The notes under the pieces: model-generated | Databases searched by the model: none | The model's input: the letters and a program-made list of their open reading frames with translations, nothing else | Told to the model about the DNA's origin: nothing | Assembly: GCA_043827025.1 (NCBI GenBank) | Contig: JBDRPL010000014.1 | Span: forward strand, 1-18,731 | DNA: 18,731 nt | Direction of reading: 5' to 3' | DNA from: Candidatus Micrarchaeota archaeon | GTDB lineage: Archaea; Micrarchaeota; Micrarchaeia; Anstonellales; Bilamarchaeaceae | Translations under genes and position numbers: made by a program | Shown: piece by piece, positions 64 to 18,026 of the stretch | Layout: each line of letters starts with the position of its first letter | Position numbering within the stretch: the first letter of the stretch is position 1

Positions 64-729
64 ATGGTTCGAGTTACGCTTGAGCAACAAATTAGAATAC
101 AATGCAGGCGAGGGACTGCTCTCCCTCAAGCACAATCACTAGTTCTTTTAGGAAGATATGAGATAAAAGAAACATTTGACAGAGGCCAGAACGGAACTGT
201 TTACAAAGCATTTGACACTCGAACAGGCCAGTTTGTAGGGATAAAAGAGGTGAAAGATGATGGATCTCCGCAGGCAAAACATACAAAGCGCGAGTTTCAA
301 ATCGGGCAAAGGCTGAACCATCCAGGTATCTCAAAGTATTACGAGTCGCAAATTGCTGATGGAAACATCTATGTAGTGCGAGAATGGGGAGAAGGGCAAA
401 CATTAAGCGAGATTGGCACAATCAACCCTGACCAAAAAAAGGAAATCATGCGGCAAGTGCTGGACATTGTTGAATATGCTCACGGCCAGAGAATCGTTTT
501 AAGGGATTTGAAAGCAAGCAATATTTCTATTGATGAACATGGGGATGTCAAGTTGTTCGAGATTGGCGGTGCGATTCCTGCTGGAGAAAGAGAAGAGCGA
601 GACCAACTATCCACATTAGGTGTTGCAGGAACATTCGGCCCAACTTCACCTGAAACATTCTATGGTTCAACTAATAGCAAGGGAGATATCTGGTCATTGG
701 GCTACCTATTGGCTGAACTTTGCATATGA
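64..729 (+). CDS. Hanks-type Ser/Thr protein kinase, N-terminal part (subdomains I-IX), ended by an in-frame TGA
   Basis: RYEIKETFDRGQNGTVYKA (G-loop), VGIKE (beta3 Lys), REFQIGQRLNHPGI, LRDLKASNI (catalytic loop), KLFEIG (DFG position), SPE, DIWSLG. Subdomain XI lies in the next ORF, in the same frame. Confidence 0.85.
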   Translation: MVRVTLEQQIRIQCRRGTALPQAQSLVLLGRYEIKETFDRGQNGTVYKAFDTRTGQFVGIKEVKDDGSPQAKHTKREFQIGQRLNHPGISKYYESQIADGNIYVVREWGEGQTLSEIGTINPDQKKEIMRQVLDIVEYAHGQRIVLRDLKASNISIDEHGDVKLFEIGGAIPAGEREERDQLSTLGVAGTFGPTSPETFYGSTNSKGDIWSLGYLLAELCI

Positions 730-735
730 CATGAA

Positions 736-1812
736 ATGCAATATACTAGTGAAAAAGAAGCATTCGAATTTGAACAGATTATGGATCAAACAGAAAGAGA
801 AGTGGTTATAAGGGCTATGAGACTTGAGCCTTCCGAAAGATTCGCTTCAGTTGAAGAGATGAGAAATAAAATGCATGGACATGAAGAGATATTCCCTATA
901 ACTCAAATGATCGATCTTGAACGAATACAAACAAAAATTTCATGGTTGGACAGGATTGGAAAGGCAGCAAGAATCTTGGCACTGGGCGAGTTTATAGTAA
1001 TACCTTTAGCATATAAGGACATATTCAGCACACTATTTGGAACTGGACCTGATGTTAACAGAATTATAATGATTGCAGGCGCAGCAATTTTGGCCCTGAG
1101 CATTCCAATCATAAGATTGAGTGACCGCAAAACCGACAGACTCAAATCATCGGAAAAAAAATTAGAAGAAGAAATTAGTAGAAGATCAGCAGAAGTCAGA
1201 AGAGATGGCGAGGCAAAAAGAATGATTGCAAGGGAGAACTTGAAACTGAAGAAAAAAATAAAAGGATACTTGACAGATATTTTATATGCGAGTCATAGCT
1301 CTTGGAGTGAAACCGAATTTGCAAGATATACTTCAGAGAGGGGGCGCATGGAAATACCTTATAGCCATCTATCTATTTTTGGATTATCGCATGAAGCAAT
1401 AGGTTCAATAGTCGACAGGACTAAATCAGAACTGCAAATGACAAGGGATTTTGGTGGCACAGGAGATTATTCTGCGCTGATGGCATGGATAGCAACTTGC
1501 CAAATACCAAAGGAATTCAGGCAATGCTTGGCCCAAACCATCCAGAGTATTGAAATATTCAATAGGCAAACTGCACGTTTTTTGGAACAAAACGATTTCC
1601 AGGGTTTGTTCAACCACATTACATCTAGTGTATTTGTTTCAGATATCGGATCAAATAGATATTTTCTTGGAGAAGCGTTGGCCCCACTTTCAGGACCACA
1701 TTCTGAACAAATAAAAACTAACGTACTTAGTCAACTTGAATCTGAGTCATCAAGAATCCATTCGTCAGTATCGCAAAGAGTCATGGCAGGAATCAGGTTG
1801 ATGGATAGCTGA
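736..1812 (+). CDS. C-terminal part of the interrupted kinase: subdomain XI, two hydrophobic segments, coiled coil, unknown helical domain
   Basis: Same frame as 64..729, separated by TGA CAT GAA. RAMRLEPSERFASVEEM matches kinase subdomain XI. ILALGEFIVIPLAY and IIMIAGAAILALSIPII are hydrophobic. The fused ORF 64..1812 would be 582 aa. Confidence 0.75.
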   Translation: MQYTSEKEAFEFEQIMDQTEREVVIRAMRLEPSERFASVEEMRNKMHGHEEIFPITQMIDLERIQTKISWLDRIGKAARILALGEFIVIPLAYKDIFSTLFGTGPDVNRIIMIAGAAILALSIPIIRLSDRKTDRLKSSEKKLEEEISRRSAEVRRDGEAKRMIARENLKLKKKIKGYLTDILYASHSSWSETEFARYTSERGRMEIPYSHLSIFGLSHEAIGSIVDRTKSELQMTRDFGGTGDYSALMAWIATCQIPKEFRQCLAQTIQSIEIFNRQTARFLEQNDFQGLFNHITSSVFVSDIGSNRYFLGEALAPLSGPHSEQIKTNVLSQLESESSRIHSSVSQRVMAGIRLMDS

Positions 1813-2689: not shown

Positions 2690-4456
2690 TTACTTGGCAG
2701 GAACTGTCAAATCTTCCAAAGCCACTGTATACCTTCCGCCATTGGCAAGCCTGACATCAACTCGTTCTCCGACATTCACCACTCCTTCTCTACCATTGAC
2801 CAATAGCCTTGCCCATTTGGCACCATCGGCATAACCCAGAGCAACTTCTTTAACTTGGACATTAAATCCTAAGCCAGTATCCTCAGAAGCCCCTTCTCCA
2901 ATCGAACCGAAATAGAGTGCATTGCCATTTGCGTCGTTCACTCTTATGGAGGCTCTCGAAGTCTCTGGATAATAGGTGCTCAGGTCCATAAGCTTAATCG
3001 AGTAATCTCCTGCGTTAAGCTGGTCACCTACGCCAATAACTCCTCTTGTTGCATCCAAGCTTATATCTGCCCACTTTGCACCATATGTATAACCAGGAGC
3101 AACTGCATTAACTGTAACTGTTTTGCCATCGTCTAGCCTAAAATTCGAACCTTCACGAACACCAACTTCCTTCACAAGGTTTCCGTTTCTTGAGATTTGC
3201 AATAATGCCCTGCTGGTTTCTGAATTCTGAATAGATATATCGTCAAGCCTGACGCCGAATTCACCATTGTTTAAGCGCAATGTATCGCCAAATCCGATCA
3301 CACCTTCCAAAACCCCGACTTTTATTCTTGCCCATTTAGAAGCAAAGGTATATCCAGGATTGACCTTCTTTATCTCGATATCCATGCCTAATACGGATTT
3401 CGTAGCGCCTTCAACAATTGCCTGTTGGGAAAGTACATTTCTATTGTTGTCCAAAACACTTACAATTGCTCTTGCACTGCCTTTTGGAACTCCGGTTAAA
3501 TCAGTTAATATGAAGTTACCGCCATTTCCTAAAGGAATTGTTTGGCCTATGAAAGCAACTCCGTCAAAAACAACCCCTGCATCTGAATTGATTGAAACCC
3601 TTGCCCATTTCGCAGCATATGTATAGCCAGGAGCGATTTCTGAAACCGAAATTGTGTATTGGTTTTGGAGTCTGACTATTGTTTGTCCACCTTTTTCCAA
3701 AGAATCTTCAATCAGTACATTTCCATTGGCATCCTTTACCTGGAATGACGCCCTTCCTGAATTTGGATTTGCTATGCTGATATCTTCAAGAGTAACTCTT
3801 TGTCCGCCGATAGTTACAGAATCCCCGGTATTAAGGACTCGTGATACTGGAGAACTGTCATATTTTACCTGAGCCCACTTTGCACCATAAGAATAACCAG
3901 GGCTTATCTTTTCCAAAACTACAGTTTCCCCGCCAATACGTATTGGAGAGCCTATGCAAAGGAGATTTCCTGACATTATCGCACATGATCTTTTCGGGTT
4001 AACTGCCAGGTCCTTCAAGGTAACCTTGAAAGTGCCTGCACTCAAAGACTCTCCGGTATTGACTACTCCTGATGCCTGCGCGACCCCATTAAGAACAATA
4101 GATATTTTGGCCCATTTTGCGCCGTAGGTGTAGCCTGGATTGACCCTCTCCACAAAAACATTATACTCCGAACCTGCAACCCTAGTATATTTTGATGAAT
4201 AACTCTCTTGAACTATATCTATTTGTGAAAGTTTTCCTTGATCATATATTTCGATCGAAGCCCAATAAGGCGATGTAGCTTTCTGGGGCAAAGCCTTGTA
4301 TTGAACAGGTGCCTTGGCAACAGTGTCAGTTACAACGGGTTTGACAACTGGCTTGGCAAAGCTTGTTTTAGCAGCAGCATCTCCACTTGAAGTACAGCCT
4401 ACAAACAAAAACACCAATAATAATCCGACAATCAAGAAATTATTGTTGAATTTCAT
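2690..4456 (-). CDS. Secreted or lipid-anchored surface protein with six ~79-91 aa beta-rich repeats (PGYTYGAKWA motif), S-layer-like
   Basis: Start moved to MKFNNNFLIVGLLLVFLFVGC (signal ending in a lipobox-like GC), 588 aa. Motif copies: PGYTYGAKWA, PGYSYGAKWA, PGYTYAAKWA, PGYTFASKWA, PGYTYGAKWA, LGYADGAKWA. Confidence 0.8.
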   Translation of the reverse strand: MKFNNNFLIVGLLLVFLFVGCTSSGDAAAKTSFAKPVVKPVVTDTVAKAPVQYKALPQKATSPYWASIEIYDQGKLSQIDIVQESYSSKYTRVAGSEYNVFVERVNPGYTYGAKWAKISIVLNGVAQASGVVNTGESLSAGTFKVTLKDLAVNPKRSCAIMSGNLLCIGSPIRIGGETVVLEKISPGYSYGAKWAQVKYDSSPVSRVLNTGDSVTIGGQRVTLEDISIANPNSGRASFQVKDANGNVLIEDSLEKGGQTIVRLQNQYTISVSEIAPGYTYAAKWARVSINSDAGVVFDGVAFIGQTIPLGNGGNFILTDLTGVPKGSARAIVSVLDNNRNVLSQQAIVEGATKSVLGMDIEIKKVNPGYTFASKWARIKVGVLEGVIGFGDTLRLNNGEFGVRLDDISIQNSETSRALLQISRNGNLVKEVGVREGSNFRLDDGKTVTVNAVAPGYTYGAKWADISLDATRGVIGVGDQLNAGDYSIKLMDLSTYYPETSRASIRVNDANGNALYFGSIGEGASEDTGLGFNVQVKEVALGYADGAKWARLLVNGREGVVNVGERVDVRLANGGRYTVALEDLTVPAK

Positions 4457-4479
4457 GAATAAAATAAAGGAAGAAAAGA

Positions 4480-4497
4480 ATATATATATATATATAT
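4480..4497. repeat. (AT)9 microsatellite at the TATA position of the surface-protein promoter
   Basis: ATATATATATATATATAT, 24-41 nt upstream of the minus-strand ATG at 4456. Confidence 0.85.
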
Positions 4498-4506
4498 CGA
4501 TTTTTT

Positions 4507-6738
4507 CTACGACAGCCTTCCAACAGTCTCTCTCCACTTTGCTATAGAATCCTTGAACTTTGCCTTCTCCACAATCACCATGCTCTCATACTCATCCTGC
4601 TTCATTGCAACCATGACAAGGCGGTTGCCAACTGATGCAACTGAATTATAGCTGGAAAACCTAAGGGTCTTCAGCAAGCCTGAAAGATACCCAAACATCT
4701 TCAGGCTGAGCATGCTTACAACAGTATCGCTGCCATCCTTAACCTTGGAAGAAATCACTTTTCCATTTTTAGTAAGGACAACTGCCTTGAAAAGATCCTT
4801 CCTCACAAAATCATCTGCAACGTCTGCCATATTTATAGTTTTCTTCTTTACAGCCTCGTTCTCAAGCGACAGGCCAAGGGACTTGTTCTCTTTTATGAAA
4901 CGTGTGAGGGCCCAGGACCTAAGCGAGGACGGAATAAAGGAAAGGCTTGAAAGATAAATTTCTCCATTATCCTGCACTATCTTCTTCATGTCCTCTGACC
5001 ATTTGGGCCAATTCTCATCTGCAGTCTTTTTCCTTTCTATAAGTGCTTCAACTGCATCTTCTACACGCGCAAGATCAGATTCAACAGCTCTCTTATAATC
5101 AGATGTCGGATTCTTAGAAGCTTCATTTATTTTGCTCAATGAGATCGAAGCAAGCACATCATACTCCCTGCCAACATCAAAACCATCTTCCTTGGAAAGA
5201 GAATCTATCAAGGATTTTAGTTCATTTAACTTATCTTTGAGCCTTGAAACTCTTGTGGAGAAAAGTTCTGTTGCACCGCTTATCTCTTTGCCATAGAACT
5301 GCTCTAGGAAATGCACTTTCACCTTATTCTCAGCTGCAAGATATACGAAAACTCCTCCCAAAAAGAATGCAACGACTGAGACAAAGGACCAGATGTCGGA
5401 TTTGACCCAGAGATCTATGGACTGGTATATGTCAAGCTGGGAATTCACAGATTTAGCGAACATGAAGCTCGTCACGAATGCAATAATTAAACAAACCACG
5501 CCAACTACTATGTCGCTCCTCCAGGTGATGCCAGTTCTTGAAACCACCCTCTTGAAACCGTATTGAACAGGCTCCTTTGCAAGATATGCGCGTGCAACAC
5601 TTATGATTATCCTCAAAAGAAGATAAAGCAAAAGTATGATTATCACTGCAAATGCAAATGCAAAACCTAAGGAAAGATGATAGTTATTGGTTATCCCATA
5701 AAAGAAACCATATATTCCGAAAACAGGATTCAGGAAACCGAATGAAAACTCTTTTGCAACCACATTCGGCGATTGGAAATTATTCTGCATCTCCTCTGGA
5801 GAAAGAGTAGATGAAAATGCATAGATGAAAATATGCTTGGGCTTGTCGCTCGATATCTTGACGCTTTCCCATACCACTTGCTTGTTTATGGTAGAAGGCT
5901 GTGGGGAATAGACATCTTCAGCCCCATTTGGAATAATGTCAGTCATTGAAACATCGACAAAGGAAAGTCCGCTGTTTGTTGTTTCTGTATTTATCATTAC
6001 CCTGTAATCATAGTAAGAAACGCTCCTGTCCACATTACCCAGAATTGACAGAATCATATCAAGGCTGGTCGCATCTAGGCCGTTGGTGTCGCAGAGTTTC
6101 AGGTTCTGGTAAACAAAGACAGGATTTGCAAGAAGATCAGAATAATAATTGACAAGGCTGCTAAGGTCATTGACAAAGGCGATTCTTTTCTCCGGGTTTG
6201 AGCCAGGAAGCTTCTTGGCAGAATCCATTAGCGAAGATAGTGTGCCTTCGACATTCCTTCTTTGCTTCACGAAATCAAGAAGCGAGATTCCGAGCTCTGA
6301 ATTATATATTTTTACAACCTTTGCACAGTCTGCAGACATGCCCGCGCAGAGCCTTGCACACTGATCGCCCTCCAGGCAATCAACCTGAAGCCCTATGTTA
6401 TTAGAGCATTTTCCTACAAACGCATCTGATACGCCAAGAAAATCATTCAAATGGCTTGAAATCATCAGCTGGTTCGCATCAGTGATGTCATTGAAGGAGG
6501 ATAATTTATAGTCAACATTCGCTTTTGCAATCACCTGCCTTGAAACAGTCATGCCATTCTTCAGTTTAACTGGTGCAAAATTCATCAAGCTGACTTCGTT
6601 TATGCCATCGTCATTGAAATCAAATGGGCTAATGGATTGAAGTGAATCTTTAGAATTGGTTGAAACGTCTGTTTCACTTATGCAGCCAAACAAGGCAAAC
6701 AACAGAAACAAAGACAATAATATTGATGGAAATCTCAT
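4507..6738 (-). CDS. Membrane protein: lipoprotein-like signal, Cys-rich extracellular region, 3-4 TM helices, coiled coil, C-terminal Roadblock/LC7-like domain
   Basis: Start moved to MRFPSILLSLFLLFALFGC (743 aa). DFNDDGINE motif, Cys cluster CSNNIGLQVDCLEGDQCARLCAGMSADC, hydrophobic helices, heptad region RLKDKLNELKSLIDSL. The Roadblock call rests on pattern only. Confidence 0.75.
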   Translation of the reverse strand: MRFPSILLSLFLLFALFGCISETDVSTNSKDSLQSISPFDFNDDGINEVSLMNFAPVKLKNGMTVSRQVIAKANVDYKLSSFNDITDANQLMISSHLNDFLGVSDAFVGKCSNNIGLQVDCLEGDQCARLCAGMSADCAKVVKIYNSELGISLLDFVKQRRNVEGTLSSLMDSAKKLPGSNPEKRIAFVNDLSSLVNYYSDLLANPVFVYQNLKLCDTNGLDATSLDMILSILGNVDRSVSYYDYRVMINTETTNSGLSFVDVSMTDIIPNGAEDVYSPQPSTINKQVVWESVKISSDKPKHIFIYAFSSTLSPEEMQNNFQSPNVVAKEFSFGFLNPVFGIYGFFYGITNNYHLSLGFAFAFAVIIILLLYLLLRIIISVARAYLAKEPVQYGFKRVVSRTGITWRSDIVVGVVCLIIAFVTSFMFAKSVNSQLDIYQSIDLWVKSDIWSFVSVVAFFLGGVFVYLAAENKVKVHFLEQFYGKEISGATELFSTRVSRLKDKLNELKSLIDSLSKEDGFDVGREYDVLASISLSKINEASKNPTSDYKRAVESDLARVEDAVEALIERKKTADENWPKWSEDMKKIVQDNGEIYLSSLSFIPSSLRSWALTRFIKENKSLGLSLENEAVKKKTINMADVADDFVRKDLFKAVVLTKNGKVISSKVKDGSDTVVSMLSLKMFGYLSGLLKTLRFSSYNSVASVGNRLVMVAMKQDEYESMVIVEKAKFKDSIAKWRETVGRLS

Positions 6739-9377: not shown

Positions 9378-9460
9378 GTATATTATAGCAGACGCTAAAT
9401 TTATTAACAATGGCGAATAAATCCCATCAGATGAATAGATAGGAAGTAAAAGTGATTCAC

Positions 9461-10543
9461 ATGAAAAACTCCATTTCAACAATAGGCTCGCATTCAGCTC
9501 TTGAAGTGAGCGAAGGTGCAAGATCCGAAGGATTCAGGACAATAGTTGCATGCCAGCAGGGCAGGGAAAATGTTTATCTAGGATATTACAAGACGAGAAA
9601 AAGGGGCAAAGAAGAAGTTGGAGTAATTGATGAAGTGCTTCTGATGCCTAAATTCGCCAACATTGTCGAAGACAAATATCAAAAATATCTGCTTGATCGG
9701 AATGCAATTTTTATCCCAAATCGAAGTTTTTCAGTTTATGTCGGATACGATAACATCGAGAAAAAATTCCATGTTCCGATATTCGGCAACAAGTATCTTT
9801 TGCGGGCCGAAGAGAGAGACCAGCCAAACAACCAATATGACCTAATGAAAAAGGCAGGTATGAATTATCCAAGAGAAATTTCATCTCCGGAAAAAATAAA
9901 TGCGCCTTGTATTGTCAAGGTGAATGAAAAACAGAGAAAATACGAGCGGGCATTCTTTGTGGCCACAAGCCCTGACGAGTATGAAAAGAAGAGCCAGCAC
10001 CTTCTAAAAGACGATAAGATAACAGAGGAAGACCTCAAAAAAGCAAAAATCGAAGAATTTATCATAGGCGCTCCATTCAACTTCAACTTCTTCTATTCTA
10101 AGGTGCATGAAGAACTGGAATTGATGGGTGTGGATATGAGAAGGCAAACCAATCTAGATGGCTACCTTCACCTTCCTGCAGACATCCAGCTTGAACTTCT
10201 CAAAACAAGAGAGCCTAGAAATATAGAAGCAGGCCATATAGCATGCACAGTTCGCGAATCATTACTTCAAAACGTGTTTGAACAGGCTGAGAAACTGGTA
10301 AAGAGTGCTGAAAAACAATACAAACCAGGAATAATCGGGCCTTTTGCACTCCAAGGCGCAATAGAAGAAAGGGATGGCAAGGAAAGATTCGTCACATTCG
10401 ACATTTCGTTTAGAATACCTGGCTCCCCTGGAACAAGATTCACACCATACTCTGGATATATTTTCGGAGAGACGATGTCATTCGGAAGAAGAATTGCAAA
10501 AGAAATAAAAGAAGCTAAAAAAATAGATCAGATTACAAGCTAA
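9461..10543 (+). CDS. purP: PurP-like ATP-grasp protein (FAICAR synthetase family, divergent paralogue without the Gly-rich loop)
   Basis: TIGSHSAL, IPNRSF, PIFGN, RKYERAFF in place of GAxGGRGYF, RRQTNLDG, VRESLL, PGIIGPFALQ, RIPGSPG, MSFGRRIA. ATG at 9461 follows SD-like AGTGAT. Confidence 0.88.
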   Translation: MKNSISTIGSHSALEVSEGARSEGFRTIVACQQGRENVYLGYYKTRKRGKEEVGVIDEVLLMPKFANIVEDKYQKYLLDRNAIFIPNRSFSVYVGYDNIEKKFHVPIFGNKYLLRAEERDQPNNQYDLMKKAGMNYPREISSPEKINAPCIVKVNEKQRKYERAFFVATSPDEYEKKSQHLLKDDKITEEDLKKAKIEEFIIGAPFNFNFFYSKVHEELELMGVDMRRQTNLDGYLHLPADIQLELLKTREPRNIEAGHIACTVRESLLQNVFEQAEKLVKSAEKQYKPGIIGPFALQGAIEERDGKERFVTFDISFRIPGSPGTRFTPYSGYIFGETMSFGRRIAKEIKEAKKIDQITS

Positions 10544-11913: not shown

Positions 11914-12891
11914 TCACAGCACTACAGACAAGTCTGAAAATTTTCTTTTTTCTTTAAGCCTGAAGACTGCACCTGTCATGTCATGCTGAGAATCAATTGC
12001 TTTTGAGTTTGGACTTTCGTTTAGATCAAAGCCTGCCTGTGCAAAAAGATCATAAAGTTTGCTTTTATTTATGGGGCTTGTGTTCTTATGCACCAACTCA
12101 TTTAATCCAGGAATCGATCTTTCTGTTGCAGGACTTACAACTAACTTGAATTCCTCTGCACTGAATAACTGCCCTCCTTCTGCACATATCATCGATGCTA
12201 TCTGGGCAGCCCTGAATTTCGCCTGAAGAGTCCTGCTGCGGAACTCCGAGATAGACTCATCCTCTACTCTTCCACCCCCTATCCAATGATTAACATAAGT
12301 CATAAAAAGAAACTGTGCAGGCGTATTCAAAAGCCAGTCCATACGGTTAAGATACACATCTTCTATCGATGAACTTACTAATACTACTTTGTGCACATCG
12401 GGATTTTCACCAATCCAAGATGCAGGATAACCTGCACATTCAAGTGAAGTAGTCAAATTTGTCCCAGATTGGCGCAACATTGTTGTTGCATCAACATCAA
12501 GAGCCACAATTGCAGGAGTATGAGGATGAGCTGCAACAAAGCCCATAAGTTTTCTCTTCACTTCCCCATTTCCCGATCGAATCAAATAAGCAAGCAAATG
12601 TGCAGTGCCACAGCCAAGATCTACAATTGGAAAATCCAATGTGCTAAGGATGAAATGGCGGGCTAAATATTCCAATGCATCATAATGCCCAGTCACTCGC
12701 ATAACGTGGTCGTATACAGGACCATTAAAAGGCCCTTCATAAATCCCACGGACACCTAACAGAGCTCGAATATCTTGTGAAGAAAAGGGTTTTATAATTG
12801 ATTCATTAAGCGGAGATCGCGTTGCATGCTCCCCCGTTCTAGACCTAGCAGAACCTGCAGATGTTAAAGAGTGAGCAACAGCACTAGCCAT
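11914..12891 (-). CDS. Class I SAM-dependent methyltransferase-fold protein
   Basis: Motif I IVDLGCGTAHLL, beta2 IVALDVD, FMTYVNHW, ICAEGGQLFSAE. Start moved to MASAVAHS, with TTTTAAT about 25-31 nt upstream. Confidence 0.75.
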   Translation of the reverse strand: MASAVAHSLTSAGSARSRTGEHATRSPLNESIIKPFSSQDIRALLGVRGIYEGPFNGPVYDHVMRVTGHYDALEYLARHFILSTLDFPIVDLGCGTAHLLAYLIRSGNGEVKRKLMGFVAAHPHTPAIVALDVDATTMLRQSGTNLTTSLECAGYPASWIGENPDVHKVVLVSSSIEDVYLNRMDWLLNTPAQFLFMTYVNHWIGGGRVEDESISEFRSRTLQAKFRAAQIASMICAEGGQLFSAEEFKLVVSPATERSIPGLNELVHKNTSPINKSKLYDLFAQAGFDLNESPNSKAIDSQHDMTGAVFRLKEKRKFSDLSVVL

Positions 12892-12951
12892 AAAAAAAGA
12901 TATGATGGGAAACATATTAAAATCCATCAGCTGATTCAAAAAACAACATTA

Positions 12952-13722
12952 TTATTTATAAAAAGTAGCAGAATGTATGGTAATTTCATCACTAACCCTG
13001 AACCTGGAGCCATGTCCAAGCAGATTGAGACCTGCATCGGTGAGAATTTCATGATGCAACTCTACAACACTCATTGGAAAGCATACATTCTGAAAAGCAT
13101 TGGAAATATTTAGGTTGCCTGCTAAATATTCAGTCATTTGCAAAGGCCGAGATACGAATCTGGCTGCATTCACCCCGCTTGGAAATGCTTCAAGACTTAT
13201 CAACAACCCTCCATCTGCAAGATAATGCGTGAACTTTGATGCAATTTTAATTCTGTCATCTGGAGGGAAATGAAAAAATAAATTTGCCACAATGATCGTG
13301 TCGAATCCACCATAAAAACCATCCCTGATTACAGACTGATCAAGATTTTTATGAAGAAAAAATTCCAGATTAAAATCCTTGGCACCAGGAGCAGATTTTA
13401 TCCTCCTGGAGATTTCTGAAACGACCTGCTCCGAAATCCCTATAGACGTGATCCTGGATTTACCTGCTTGAGATTGCCAGGCATCATGAGCCGCCTTTAA
13501 TTGAAGCAAATGACAAACAAGAAATCCATTAAGAAAACTGAAATCAAGGATTCTTGGGCCGACATTGTTGAGGATACTGCTGAATGCTTTCCTAAAGCCC
13601 CTTGATTCCCCAGTAGCTTCCATATTTTCAAAAAGTATGCGTCCTGAGCGCCTGCTAAAAAAAGTGGCAAGATTTTGATTGTGTGGTGTTGAATAACCTT
13701 GTCTTAACCTACGGCCTGCCAT
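12952..13722 (-). CDS. Degenerate methyltransferase-fold protein (motif I glycines mostly lost)
   Basis: RILDFSFLNGFL, ITSIGIS, FDTIIVANLFFHF, YLADGGLLISLE. Start moved to MAGRRLRQG. Confidence 0.6.
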   Translation of the reverse strand: MAGRRLRQGYSTPHNQNLATFFSRRSGRILFENMEATGESRGFRKAFSSILNNVGPRILDFSFLNGFLVCHLLQLKAAHDAWQSQAGKSRITSIGISEQVVSEISRRIKSAPGAKDFNLEFFLHKNLDQSVIRDGFYGGFDTIIVANLFFHFPPDDRIKIASKFTHYLADGGLLISLEAFPSGVNAARFVSRPLQMTEYLAGNLNISNAFQNVCFPMSVVELHHEILTDAGLNLLGHGSRFRVSDEITIHSATFYK

Positions 13723-13753
13723 GGAAGAAAAGTATATACAACTTATTTTAAAC

Positions 13754-13780
13754 CTTCTTATTTTTATAAAAAAGACCACA
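13754..13780 (-). promoter_or_regulatory. 27-bp duplicated upstream element, copy 1
   Basis: CTTCTTATTTTTATAAAAAAGACCACA, 26/27 identical to 14706-14732, at -32..-58 of the ATG at 13722. Confidence 0.75.
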
Positions 13781-14674
13781 TTAGAGATTTTTTTGATAAA
13801 ATGTGCAAAAGACATTACCTGATGGAATATAAGAATCATGATACGCAAGAAGATCGAAGCCATTGTTGACTAATTTCGAAAACAGATCGTCAGGAATAGG
13901 TTTTGACAACAGCCCATATAGCAAACGAGTAGTTTCATCTATTTCAATGTTCGAATAAGGAATAAGCTGGTTTTGTTGTTCTAATGGCTTAAATGTCAAG
14001 AGCAAAAGATATTTCCCTGGTTGGATAAGCTCTTTGGCACCCATCAAAAAAGAGAGGGCATCCCCTCTGATCAAACTAAGATTCGATACTACGACCACAT
14101 CGAATTTTCCATGCAGATCTACAGGCATTTCTACAGGATCATAGGCAGTGAACCGAATTGTCTGAAAAACATTTTCCGGAATGTCGCGATGTAATCTTTG
14201 CTGTGCAAGACAACTCATGTTGTCAGATAGGGAATTTATCCAGAATAATAGGGGATTTTCTGAAAAAAAAGGATGGTGGCGATTGAATGCGGCATATAAC
14301 TGAGAAAGGAAAACACATGTAGTGGTATTCAAATTCAAGACACTTCCTTTGAAAAAGGCGGGGGCAGAAGTTGCAAGCTGGTATGCAAACCCGTCCATTG
14401 CATTGTGGAGCCCTGAAACCAACCCATGGGCATCCCAAACATCTGCATCACAACCAATTAGATGAGACGGCGCAGCAGGATTTCTAGCACTGAGACGGTC
14501 GAATAAATGAACCAGCAATTCTCTGGAACTCAGAATACTTTCTGGAACAGGTTGTCTAAGAATGGATGGATTTGAATTAAGTGTATCGATAAATTCTTTT
14601 GGAGTAGGCCCATACCCAGATGTGTGTGAACCAGAATTATGGCCTACTGAACACCTAATTTTGCCTCTCCCCAT
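13781..14674 (-). CDS. Highly degenerate methyltransferase-fold protein
   Basis: GSVLNLNTTTCVFL (motif I position), KFDVVVVSNL, AKELIQPGKYLLLL, LVNNGFDLL. Same motif order as its two neighbours. Confidence 0.55.
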   Translation of the reverse strand: MGRGKIRCSVGHNSGSHTSGYGPTPKEFIDTLNSNPSILRQPVPESILSSRELLVHLFDRLSARNPAAPSHLIGCDADVWDAHGLVSGLHNAMDGFAYQLATSAPAFFKGSVLNLNTTTCVFLSQLYAAFNRHHPFFSENPLLFWINSLSDNMSCLAQQRLHRDIPENVFQTIRFTAYDPVEMPVDLHGKFDVVVVSNLSLIRGDALSFLMGAKELIQPGKYLLLLTFKPLEQQNQLIPYSNIEIDETTRLLYGLLSKPIPDDLFSKLVNNGFDLLAYHDSYIPSGNVFCTFYQKNL

Positions 14675-14791: not shown

Positions 14792-15832
14792 ATGGTCCAA
14801 AAGAAAATAATAGACGAAATCATAGATAGTTACCCAGAAATATCCATAGCAACCATCTGTTCCCATTCTTCTCTTCAAATCTTCAAAGGAGCACGTGAGG
14901 AAGGAATCAAAACAATCGGCATAGTAAAAAAGGAAAACAAGAAACTTTACGAGTCGTTTCCCTTCGGAAAGCCGGATGAGTTTATAATTGTGGATGATTA
15001 CAAAAACATCCCTGTCAGTGAGCTTGTGGCAAAGAATGCAATAGTCATCCCACATGGCTCGTTTGTAGAGTATGTGGGAGAAAAATTCGATTCAATGGAA
15101 CTGCCTGTTTACGGCAACAGAAAAAGCCTTGTTTGGGAAAGAAGCAGGGAAAAGATGATAGAATGGCTGAGAAAGGCAGGCATCAAAACACCTAAAACTC
15201 TCAAGCCTAACGATATTGATGGCCCATGCCTTGTGAAATTTCCAGGTGCAAAAGGCGGCAGGGGATATTTCATAGTCAAAACAAGGGAAGAATTCGATGA
15301 GATAGTTGGAAAGCAGGAATGTATGATCCAGGAATTCATCATCGGGGTAAGGGCCTACCCACATTATTTCTTCTCACCTATTTCAGAAATCGGCTATCCT
15401 GCAAAACACGGAAGGATCGAATTGTTGGGAGTTGACACGAGGATAGAAAGTTCAGCGAATGAAATTGCACGAGCTGTGTCAGCAGGCATTAAGAAGAAGA
15501 TGGCATTCACAGTCATCGGCAACCAATCCATGGTATTAAGAGAGTCATTGCTTGGCGAATATTTCGAGATGGGCAGGAAAGTCAGGGATGCATCAATAGA
15601 TCTGTTCGGAGGGATATTCGGGCCGTATTGCATTGAAACGATAATCACAGAAGACCTTGAAATATATGCATTTGAAATTTCTGCAAGGATAGTCGCAGGC
15701 ACGAATGTTTATCCTAACGGCTCACCTTATTCAACATATTATTATAATGAGCCAATGAGCACAGGAAAAAGAATCGCACGCGAACTGAAGGAAGCTTTCA
15801 AAAGGAAGAGATTAAAAGAAATCATTTATTAG
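14792..15832 (+). CDS. purP: PurP, formate-dependent FAICAR synthetase family (ATP-grasp)
   Basis: IATICSHSSLQIFKGAREEG, IPHGSFVEY, KFPGAKGGRGYF, VLRESLL, FEISARIVAGTN, EPMSTGKRIARE. Confidence 0.92.
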   Translation: MVQKKIIDEIIDSYPEISIATICSHSSLQIFKGAREEGIKTIGIVKKENKKLYESFPFGKPDEFIIVDDYKNIPVSELVAKNAIVIPHGSFVEYVGEKFDSMELPVYGNRKSLVWERSREKMIEWLRKAGIKTPKTLKPNDIDGPCLVKFPGAKGGRGYFIVKTREEFDEIVGKQECMIQEFIIGVRAYPHYFFSPISEIGYPAKHGRIELLGVDTRIESSANEIARAVSAGIKKKMAFTVIGNQSMVLRESLLGEYFEMGRKVRDASIDLFGGIFGPYCIETIITEDLEIYAFEISARIVAGTNVYPNGSPYSTYYYNEPMSTGKRIARELKEAFKRKRLKEIIY

Positions 15833-16550: not shown

Positions 16551-16595
16551 CGAAAGCTATTTAAGTACAAACATGGCGATATATAACAAGGTGAT
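16551..16595 (+). promoter_or_regulatory. BRE/TATA and Shine-Dalgarno of the GS-like gene
   Basis: CGAAAGC-TATTTAAG (16551-16565), then GGTGAT (16590-16595) 3 nt before the TTG start. Confidence 0.6.
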
Positions 16596-16598
16596 TAC

Positions 16599-17969
16599 TT
16601 GTCAGGAGTAGATGAAGTATTGAAATATATTGCAACCAATGAAATAAAATGGATAGATTTGCAGTTCTTTGATATCAAAGGCTTCATGCACCGCACAACT
16701 ATTTCAAACAAGCAAATCGATGATAAACTGTTCGAGAAAGGCATTGATGCTGCAGACTTGACAAAGGTGTTCGGAAAAAGCGAACAGGGAGAATTAGTGC
16801 TTGTGCCTGACCCTGATACAATGGCAAGGATACCTTGGGAACCCTCAACAATACGATTCCTATGCGATGTTAGAGTGGCAGATAAGAATGAAAGATTCCT
16901 AAAGGATTCCAGATATGTTGCAGAGAGGACTGAATCAAATATAGAAGCAATCGGCGCAAAGAGCATGCTTGTTGGCGCAGATGTGGAATTCAATATATTC
17001 GACAGTGCAACAACAGATAGAACCACTCCTGGAAGAGGAGGAGGAACACTTATAGAATCACGGGAAGCTCCGTGGAGCCCTACCACATTGGCAGGATTTG
17101 AAAAAGGTTCGTTCATAGCAACTCCGTTTGATACTATGTATGGCGCAAGGGCGCAGATTGCAGAAACAATGGAAGAAAGTTTTGGAGTCACTATAGACGG
17201 CCACAGGCACGGAAGATCAAAAATGGGACAGCAAATGCTTGACATACAGGAGTATCCTGTAAAGATGGCTGCTGATGCACTCACAAGTGTAAAGTATGTT
17301 GCACGCAGCCTGGGGAATGCAGTAAATGCTTCTGTTACTTTCATGCCTTATCCTATAGACGGCGAAACAGGGAATTCATTGAACATCCATCAAAGCATAT
17401 GGAAAGCATCTGACAAAAATGTCTTCTACGATGGCGAGGACAATTATGCCCAGATAAGCCAAACTGCAAGATATTATATCGGCGGAATATTGGAGCATAC
17501 GCCTGCATTGACTTTCCTCACCAACCCAACAACCAACTCATACAGGAGATTGGCTGCTGACCCAAAAACAGTAGGGTGGAGCAAAGAGGACAGAAACGCA
17601 GTTGTAAGGGTTCCGACAGTGAAAAAGAATTACAAGGAAACAAAAAGAATCACATATACCCTTGCAGACCCTAGCGTGAATCCCCATCTTGCATACTCTG
17701 CAATAATAGCAGCAGGCCTTGATGGAGTAAAAAACAAAATAGAGCCAGGCTATCCGACTGAAAGCAGTAAGGAAAGCAAAAAGAAGAAAATTGAATTGCC
17801 GATGGGCCTTTACCAAAGTATTGAGGCATTCGGATCCGATTCGAAATTCCTAAAAGGGCTTGTGCCAAAAGAGATCGTCGAAGAACTTGTTGATCTGAAA
17901 TACGAAGAGATAAAGAACTCCAGCAAATCGATACCTGCATGGGAAATGGCAAAGTATTTCAATATCTAA
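16599..17969 (+). CDS. glnA: Glutamine synthetase type I-fold protein with a degenerate active site (probable pseudoenzyme)
   Basis: WIDLQFFDIKG, LVPDPDT, VTFMPYP, IHQSIW, YYIGGILEH, NPTTNSYRRL, DPSVNPHLA, GLDGVKNKIEPG. Family call is firm, but most metal ligands are substituted. TTG start. Confidence 0.9.
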   Translation: MSGVDEVLKYIATNEIKWIDLQFFDIKGFMHRTTISNKQIDDKLFEKGIDAADLTKVFGKSEQGELVLVPDPDTMARIPWEPSTIRFLCDVRVADKNERFLKDSRYVAERTESNIEAIGAKSMLVGADVEFNIFDSATTDRTTPGRGGGTLIESREAPWSPTTLAGFEKGSFIATPFDTMYGARAQIAETMEESFGVTIDGHRHGRSKMGQQMLDIQEYPVKMAADALTSVKYVARSLGNAVNASVTFMPYPIDGETGNSLNIHQSIWKASDKNVFYDGEDNYAQISQTARYYIGGILEHTPALTFLTNPTTNSYRRLAADPKTVGWSKEDRNAVVRVPTVKKNYKETKRITYTLADPSVNPHLAYSAIIAAGLDGVKNKIEPGYPTESSKESKKKKIELPMGLYQSIEAFGSDSKFLKGLVPKEIVEELVDLKYEEIKNSSKSIPAWEMAKYFNI

Positions 17970-17970
17970 A

Positions 17971-18026
17971 CTTTTTTTATTTTAATTTTATTGTTTTGTT
18001 TTTGCTCATTCTTGTTTCGTATTTTT
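17971..18026 (+). terminator. T-rich terminator region after the GS-like gene
   Basis: CTTTTTTTATTTTAATTTTATTGTTTTGTTTTTG directly after the TAA. Confidence 0.6.

Follow-up and report, generated by a model that had tools for sequence, protein, structure and literature searches.

The window analysed here, an 18,731-nucleotide stretch of a contig from a Candidatus Micrarchaeota archaeon, carries a gene for a full-length glutamine synthetase (GS) homologue, hereafter pseudo-GS, whose active site has largely been replaced (Table 1). An intact reading frame had been claimed from the letters of the DNA, and this was borne out. The frame runs unbroken from a TTG at 16599 to a TAA ending at 17969 and encodes 456 residues, and a contig from a sequencing run (possibly or probably the source run) covers all of it with 0 differences. 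Two runs from a second study cover parts of the frame, with one synonymous difference. As these runs agree with the open reading frame, the lost residues are not an assembly error.

Table 1. Features of the pseudo-GS gene and its flanks, in window coordinates
Feature	Position	Strand	Basis
GS type I-beta-derived pseudoenzyme gene, 456 aa	16599..17969	+	Fold and profile matches
BRE/TATA-like archaeal promoter element, predicted: CGAAA-nn-TATTTAAG	16551..16565	+	Sequence
Shine-Dalgarno-like GGTGAT upstream of the TTG start, predicted	16590..16595	+	Sequence
T-rich tract 3' of the stop, predicted archaeal terminator	17972..18026	+	Sequence
Beta-grasp N-terminal domain, residues 16-91	16644..16871	+	PF03951, E 2.3e-13
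GS catalytic-fold domain, residues 103-453	16905..17957	+	PF00120, E 2.2e-72
Remodelled D50 loop, residues 50-65; FDGSS and ESD motifs gone	16746..16793	+	Alignment
GADVEF strand, residues 126-131: E129>D128, E131=E130	16974..16991	+	Alignment
HxHG...QQ hairpin, residues 202-213: E212>G205, E220>M213	17202..17237	+	Alignment
Residues 255-264: N264>T257, H269>N262	17361..17390	+	Alignment
Shortened E-flap, residues 315-327; catalytic Glu gone, R317 kept	17541..17579	+	Alignment
RITYT strand, residues 350-354: E357>T352, R359>T354	17646..17660	+	Alignment
C-terminal helical thong, residues 439-456, predicted swap between subunits	17913..17966	+	Dimer model

By eye, an element similar to the BRE/TATA-like one was found 5' of most homologues in the family of the source genome (f1), nearly all homologue starts were preceded by a GGTG-type motif, and many homologues were trailed by T-rich tracts. 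The BRE/TATA-like pattern occurs 20 times genome-wide. A scan for promoters and terminators returned nothing above chance, its models being bacterial and unsuited to archaea. In one RNA run, reads were recorded only on low-complexity sequence 3' of the pseudo-GS stop. Codon bias was considered as a sign of high expression and was dropped as uninformative, since two indices disagree (rank 51/1041 by a self-consistent index and 206/861 against a ribosomal-cluster reference).

Several other genes of the window were also noted. At 64-1812 (+), an ORF with a Ser/Thr kinase domain (64-729) ends 6 bases before a second ORF of 358 aa, which begins much like the C-terminal tail of a kinase; the two may be a single gene split by a stop. 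A 600-aa predicted lipoprotein at 2690-4537 (-) has many PGYTYGAKWA-like internal repeats and no Pfam match, and is possibly a surface protein. Two PurP-family (FAICAR synthetase-like) genes, at 9452-10543 and 14792-15832, lie 4 kb apart and score below the NCBIfam cut-offs. Three tandem ORFs of 300-340 aa at 11914-14674 (-), between an Lrp gene and purP, have little or no Pfam match apart from one weak methyltransferase match.

The pseudo-GS was found to have the Gln-synt_N plus Gln-synt_C architecture and the fold of GS, with type I-beta GS as its closest solved relatives (3ng0, E 1.6e-63). It resembles solved GSI-beta enzymes (3ng0, 2gls, 8v1y) over its full length and in both domains at 29-31% identity, and its AlphaFold model (pLDDT 89.2, pTM 0.90) matches their structures at TM 0.90-0.91; the C-terminal thong is also shared. 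The approximately 25-residue GSI-beta insertion is present, aligning without gaps to GSI-beta and facing gaps in the GSI-alpha of the same genome, and the subtype is also backed by the tree. Unlike these enzymes, the pseudo-GS lacks the metal ligands, the ammonium site and the E-flap, and it scores 322 bits against TIGR00653 (GlnA), under the curated cut-off of 429.15; the other GS of the genome scores 555. The adenylylation (Tyr) loop is shortened in the pseudo-GS and its best 120 matches and longer in deeper members. The GS fold likewise occurs without an ammonium site for glutamine formation in the gamma-glutamyl-amine ligases and in GSI-like proteins (NF045547, TIGR03105, FluG). However, these proteins keep the metal and ATP machinery, whereas the pseudo-GS has lost its metal ligands and falls far below their cut-offs (190 vs 650 bits for NF045547 and 191 vs 470 for TIGR03105). 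Nucleic-acid binding was also considered and found no support from charge, as the mean net charge is -7.

Residues were mapped by HMMER alignment to 2gls with enterobacterial GSI numbering, and 11 catalytic residues were scored per sequence. By the roles established for enterobacterial GS, the six metal ligands are E129, E131, E212, E220, H269 and E357, the substrate arginines are R321, R339, R344 and R359, and Y179 also belongs to the active site. The six metal positions read D, E, G, M, N and T in the pseudo-GS, with 1/6 unchanged, and 4/11 of the scored residues are carried overall, compared to 11/11 in 64/64 intact GS of the same phylum. The substitutions read by eye at E129, E212, E220, N264, H269, E357 and R359 were all reproduced by the alignment, and Y179 was found to be lost as well (S171). 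A reduced flap and an unrecognisable FDGSS motif had also been claimed, and both hold, the flap being 3 residues shorter than in 2gls and FDGSS replaced. The sequence-only reading further listed E131, R321, R339 and R344 as kept. This is correct for this copy, in which the three arginines are R317, R332 and R337, and it fails as a clade feature for R339 and R344, since Arg occupies the R321, R339, R344 and R359 equivalents in 43, 7, 14 and 12 of 61 degenerate sequences. The D50 loop and Glu-flap are described for GS in the accessible text of PMC10799026, and our literature search found no paper naming these catalytic residues.

We sought to characterize how far these losses are shared. Among 301 Micrarchaeota genomes searched, 145 had a match to the pseudo-GS and 156 had none. 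The best 120 matches, the query included, showed 52-100% identity and 0-5/11 catalytic residues, and the organism-named entries among them were all labelled Micrarchaeota, one of them Bilamarchaeum. An alignment of 131 sequences of at least 330 residues was built from the fetched loci, with three shorter pieces excluded. It comprised 61 degenerate sequences (50 from f1 and 11 from f6, a second family with genomes of 0.5-1.0 Mb), 3 from f15 with 7/11, 3 intermediates that retain 6-8, and 64 intact GS with 11/11. All 61 degenerate sequences have at most 2/6 metal ligands and Gly or Ser at the E212 equivalent, and none has more than 3 of its six metal positions filled by an acidic residue or His. 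The E-flap is 13 or 11 residues long in 60/60 (one truncated row dropped) versus 16 in 64/64 intact GS. Residues for metal binding, ammonium binding and phosphoryl transfer have all been lost clade-wide.

The degenerate genes were found to be under purifying selection. A dN/dS of 0.03-0.16 was obtained in 11/18 degenerate pairs with measurable dS, and of 0.02-0.08 in 6/7 intact GS pairs; as dS was saturated in pairs with the source genome's copy, these values come from other clade members. Within the clade, the 21 positions that we take to be the former active site are more variable than the other positions (2.58 bits of median entropy against 1.90; p = 0.014), and in intact GSI-beta the same positions have an entropy of 0.00 vs 1.59 bits elsewhere. 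Pooled pN/pS at these positions is 0.19 vs 0.16 elsewhere in the degenerate clade and 0.03 vs 0.15 in intact GS. Constraint has thus gone from the active-site funnel and been kept on the fold, which argues against decay and also against new chemistry in the funnel. Near-invariant positions lie in the fold core and the back of the sheet (W18, R86, E156, D178, R184, H202, H204 and Q212, with H202, H204 and Q212 in the HxHG...QQ hairpin). Newly fixed in the clade are G205, Q212 and a central-loop motif, W-x-P-S-P-L. As position sets, the central loop and the C-terminus are not conserved above background. Acid-acid-base character at 128/130/317 was recorded in 44/60 degenerate sequences, and 51/60 have Lys or Arg in at least one of the positions 213/257/262/354. 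A clade sharing the substitutions under purifying selection, proposed as a check on the claim of a selected non-enzymatic protein, was therefore found, and the claim is supported: as judged from sequence, the pseudo-GS is a full-length GS-fold protein that is almost certainly non-catalytic and kept by selection.

The origin of the clade was examined with a tree of 44 sequences under a mixture model. The 22 degenerate sequences form one clade (support 97/95), with f1 and f6 joined at 100/99, nested in intact Micrarchaeota GS; its successive sisters are the intact GS of f16, f29 and f23. Long branches could inflate the degenerate grouping. The intact GS of f16, f23, f29, f14 and f20 act as the sister group and have W18, R86, D140, H202 and K378 in common with the pseudo-GS, but unlike it they keep all 11 scored residues. 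The sequence comparison shows descent of the pseudo-GS from intact Micrarchaeota GSI-beta via partly degraded forms.

A second, intact glnA, which the sequence-only reading had suggested looking for, was found in the source genome. It encodes a GSI-alpha distant from the pseudo-GS (555 bits) and shares its locus (G000:C11:30528-32459 = L001:1483-3414) with an Lrp/AsnC regulator of divergent sequence. Across f1, the orthologue of this regulator adjoins either a GSI-alpha or an unrelated GSI-beta, depending on the genome, which suggests that the enzyme beside it was replaced in place. Intact GS in f1 is of two unrelated types. As the degenerate clade is nested in native GS and the intact f1 enzymes are unrelated to it, we infer that the dead gene is the native GS. 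The Lrp regulator was considered as a partner of the pseudo-GS and rejected, as it tracks the intact GS and not the pseudo-GS gene.

Two further homologues were noted. In G206 (L084:3962-6724), an intact GSI-alpha and a native GS that is half degraded (8/11) form a tandem pair, a possible snapshot of enzyme replacement. In f15 (L116, L124, L128, L152), a long-branch GS homologue with 7/11 is the sole match in all four genomes; it has lost the glutamate- and ammonium-side residues and the flap but retains R344, R359 and the majority of the metal ligands, and may be an ATP- and metal-dependent enzyme acting on a different substrate.

We then assessed the distribution of the gene by searching PF00120 in 80 genomes; the figures are plain counts over incomplete and related genomes. 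The pseudo-GS was present in 61/64 other f1 genomes and 14/14 f6 genomes, with residues checked in all 75. Of the remaining f1 genomes, one has a fragment at a contig end and two have no match, and one of the 61 f1 copies (G255) contains an in-frame stop. A high-scoring GS was found in 37 f1 genomes (21 residue-checked, 16 by score only), all of which also hold the pseudo-GS. In the other 24/61 f1 carriers only the pseudo-GS was found; 21 of these also lack the Lrp orthologue that flanks intact GS, and in the 3 that have it the intact GS may be unassembled. The 14/14 f6 genomes (0.5-1.0 Mb, 83-94% complete) have the pseudo-GS only. It is thus the only full GS-family match in 38/75 carrier genomes, which annotation would wrongly credit with ammonia assimilation through GS; misleading annotation had been anticipated from the sequence, and sources do label the pseudo-GS 'glutamine synthetase'. 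No neighbouring gene is conserved across genera. Those recurring only among related genomes are a divergent phosphomannomutase-family gene (15 loci), purF (4), pdxST (4) and pyrD/pyrK. Neither P-II nor Amt was found in any of the 80 genomes (0/80 each). Glutamate dehydrogenase was rejected as a partner because it is non-specific, exceeding its cut-off in 76/80 f1/f6/f15 genomes but also in 75/80 others (74/79 without the unpublished genome G029).

Among known proteins, the pseudo-GS is closest in kind to lengsin, which the accessible text of PMC2667176 describes as a dodecameric, catalytically inactive GSI derivative recruited elsewhere, in the vertebrate lens. Both have a GS fold under selection with catalytic residues lost. 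However, lengsin is animal and tissue-specific, whereas the pseudo-GS is archaeal, belongs to the family core and has extant half-degraded intermediates. We infer that the two arose independently, from a tree that contained no lengsin sequence. Our search of literature outside the subscription journals returned no description of this Micrarchaeota pseudo-GS. The word glutamine is absent from the main texts of two papers on Micrarchaeota genomes (PMC8561730, PMC12892359), whose supplements may list the gene as glnA, and PMC5864196 mentions GS once in its accessible part.

Type I GS forms a dodecamer in which helical thongs link two rings. A homodimer model of the pseudo-GS scored 0.43 versus 0.00 for the best of 3 controls, with one of the three runs at 0.00; a mark of 0.43 is reached by 20/30 proteins solved as pairs and by 1/23 solved as single chains. 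Contact agreement between runs is at least 0%, and the partner pLDDT is at least 82. In the modelled contact, the thong (439-456) sits in the partner's 245-255/311-320 pocket, which is the GS inter-ring contact, and the score may reflect likeness to already solved GS complexes. The interface residues T247, M249, P252, N313 and Y453 are kept in 55-60/60 members (Y453 in 59/60), and the chain ends 7 residues past E449 in 59/60. As a set of 41 positions, the predicted interface shows no higher conservation than the remaining positions (p = 0.72).

Taken by exclusion, the role to which we give about an even chance is that of a catalytically dead, predicted double-ring scaffold or docking platform with an older second job. 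Under this proposal, the native GS would have lost most of its catalytic residues while its fold stayed under purifying selection, and the second, non-enzymatic job would predate the loss of catalysis. The protein would have no GS activity and, going by the model, may still assemble into GS-type rings. Basic side chains may neutralise the emptied site in the metal's stead, and the job would be done by surfaces outside the funnel. Catalysis would be supplied by the accessory Lrp-GS cassette where present, and glutamine would come from that cassette or from outside the cell. Precedent for catalysis-independent GS interactions is found in the accessible parts of PMC11800386 and PMC9249791, the latter describing Bacillus-type GS as a chaperone of GlnR/TnrA whose ring serves as a docking platform. 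The acid-acid-base character at 128/130/317 in 44/60 also fits amino-acid binding and so counts against a pure scaffold. As 156/301 Micrarchaeota genomes have no match, other members of the phylum do without any such second job. A 456-residue GS fold kept in 0.5 Mb genomes without its chemistry points to a second function of an ancient enzyme; the living half-degraded intermediates make the path from enzyme to pseudoenzyme traceable, and the intact sister enzymes offer a control for finding the partner.

It is less probable that the pseudo-GS is instead an amino-acid (Gln/Glu) sensor. In such a sensor, ligand would still bind at the alpha-amino/alpha-carboxylate end of the glutamate site, and the ring would signal its binding to a partner, perhaps a RelA/SpoT-like protein. 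The E131 equivalent is acidic in 53/61 degenerate sequences, the R321 equivalent is basic in 58/61, and the G265 equivalent is mostly kept in f1, all three being residues that presumably take part in glutamate binding. However, constraint here is loose, as E and D, or R and K, replace one another at these positions and many f6 copies lack E131. GlnR/TnrA-type or 2-oxoglutarate sensing, as raised in the sequence-only reading, is left without its known determinants. According to the accessible text of PMC9249791, GlnR docking needs a glutamine-bound, catalytically intact GSI-alpha with its E-flap and D50 loop, and the GSI-beta pore is filled by the insertion; the pseudo-GS has both loops remodelled and carries that insertion. 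The inter-subunit pocket of the 2-oxoglutarate-activated methanogen GS, as given in the accessible part of PMC10799026, maps to the near-invariant W18, R86, R184 and H202. Its R20, R88, R174, R175 and S191 correspond to D20, R86, R184, A185 and H202 (2/5), and across the clade R20 is D or variable, R175 is variable and S191 is H. A first, partly post hoc set of pocket positions had given p = 0.0008 for constraint and was dropped, as the set fixed a priori from the paper shows no excess of conservation over the other positions (p = 0.18).

As a weak lead, 60/80 f1/f6/f15 genomes have a RelA/SpoT-domain gene versus 12/79 others. An alignment search added 3 f1 and 2 f15 genomes and detected the gene in 0/23 f2 genomes. 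This gene adjoins the intact Lrp-GS cassette in 14 genomes. Against the sensor, it was not found in 5/14 f6 and 4/5 g2 genomes, it evolves very fast, with its protein about 20% identical within f1, it was not seen beside the pseudo-GS, its steadier neighbour is an IDI-2 gene, and only two or three lineages underlie the contrast between families. That a dead GS ring should serve as an amino-acid or nitrogen sensor in these P-II-less archaea and control a RelA/SpoT-like alarmone enzyme is a speculative and improbable extension; if true, it would constitute a pseudoenzyme-driven stringent-type circuit in DPANN archaea. The divergent long RelA/SpoT-like protein was itself noted at L003:11952-13943 (-) = G000:C11:33951-35942 and in L092, L094, L100 and others. 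It has synthetase-region motifs, with PF04607 in 12/13 scanned, and its gene usually lies downstream of IDI-2 and beside the Lrp-GS cassette, with tandem copies in some genomes.

It is unlikely that the GS barrel of the pseudo-GS catalyses another, perhaps metal-independent, reaction. The newly fixed G205 and Q212 and the W-x-P-S-P-L motif would fit such an enzyme, GSI-gamma-type homologues have changed substrates (PMC11800386, accessible part), and the f15 protein, with 7/11 and most metal ligands, may still be an enzyme. These points are set against the loss of constraint in the funnel and scores far under the amine-ligase cut-offs. Less likely again is a hetero-oligomer in which the pseudo-GS regulates or structurally supports the true GS of the cell as a subunit; a regulatory-subunit role had been put forward from the sequence. 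The intact GSI-alpha of the source genome, the co-occurrence in 37/37 f1 genomes with a high-scoring GS and the half-degraded copy in tandem with GSI-alpha in G206 would all be consistent with it. Yet the intact f1 GS belongs to two unrelated types, and this cannot be the general role because no intact GS was found in 24/61 f1 carriers and 14/14 f6 genomes. That the gene is a relic in decay, or that its GS remains partly active via compensating residues, appears the least probable reading, as D128, E130, R317, R332 and R337 in this copy and the stop in one f1 copy are outweighed by the dN/dS of 0.03-0.16, near-universal retention down to 0.5 Mb genomes and the metal positions, of which no more than 3/6 are acidic or His in any of the 61 sequences, so that decay is largely refuted at the sequence level. 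It was also noted that one genome (G014) has near-identical pseudo-GS copies on different contigs (L048 and L049), which likely reflect a strain mixture or assembly duplication.
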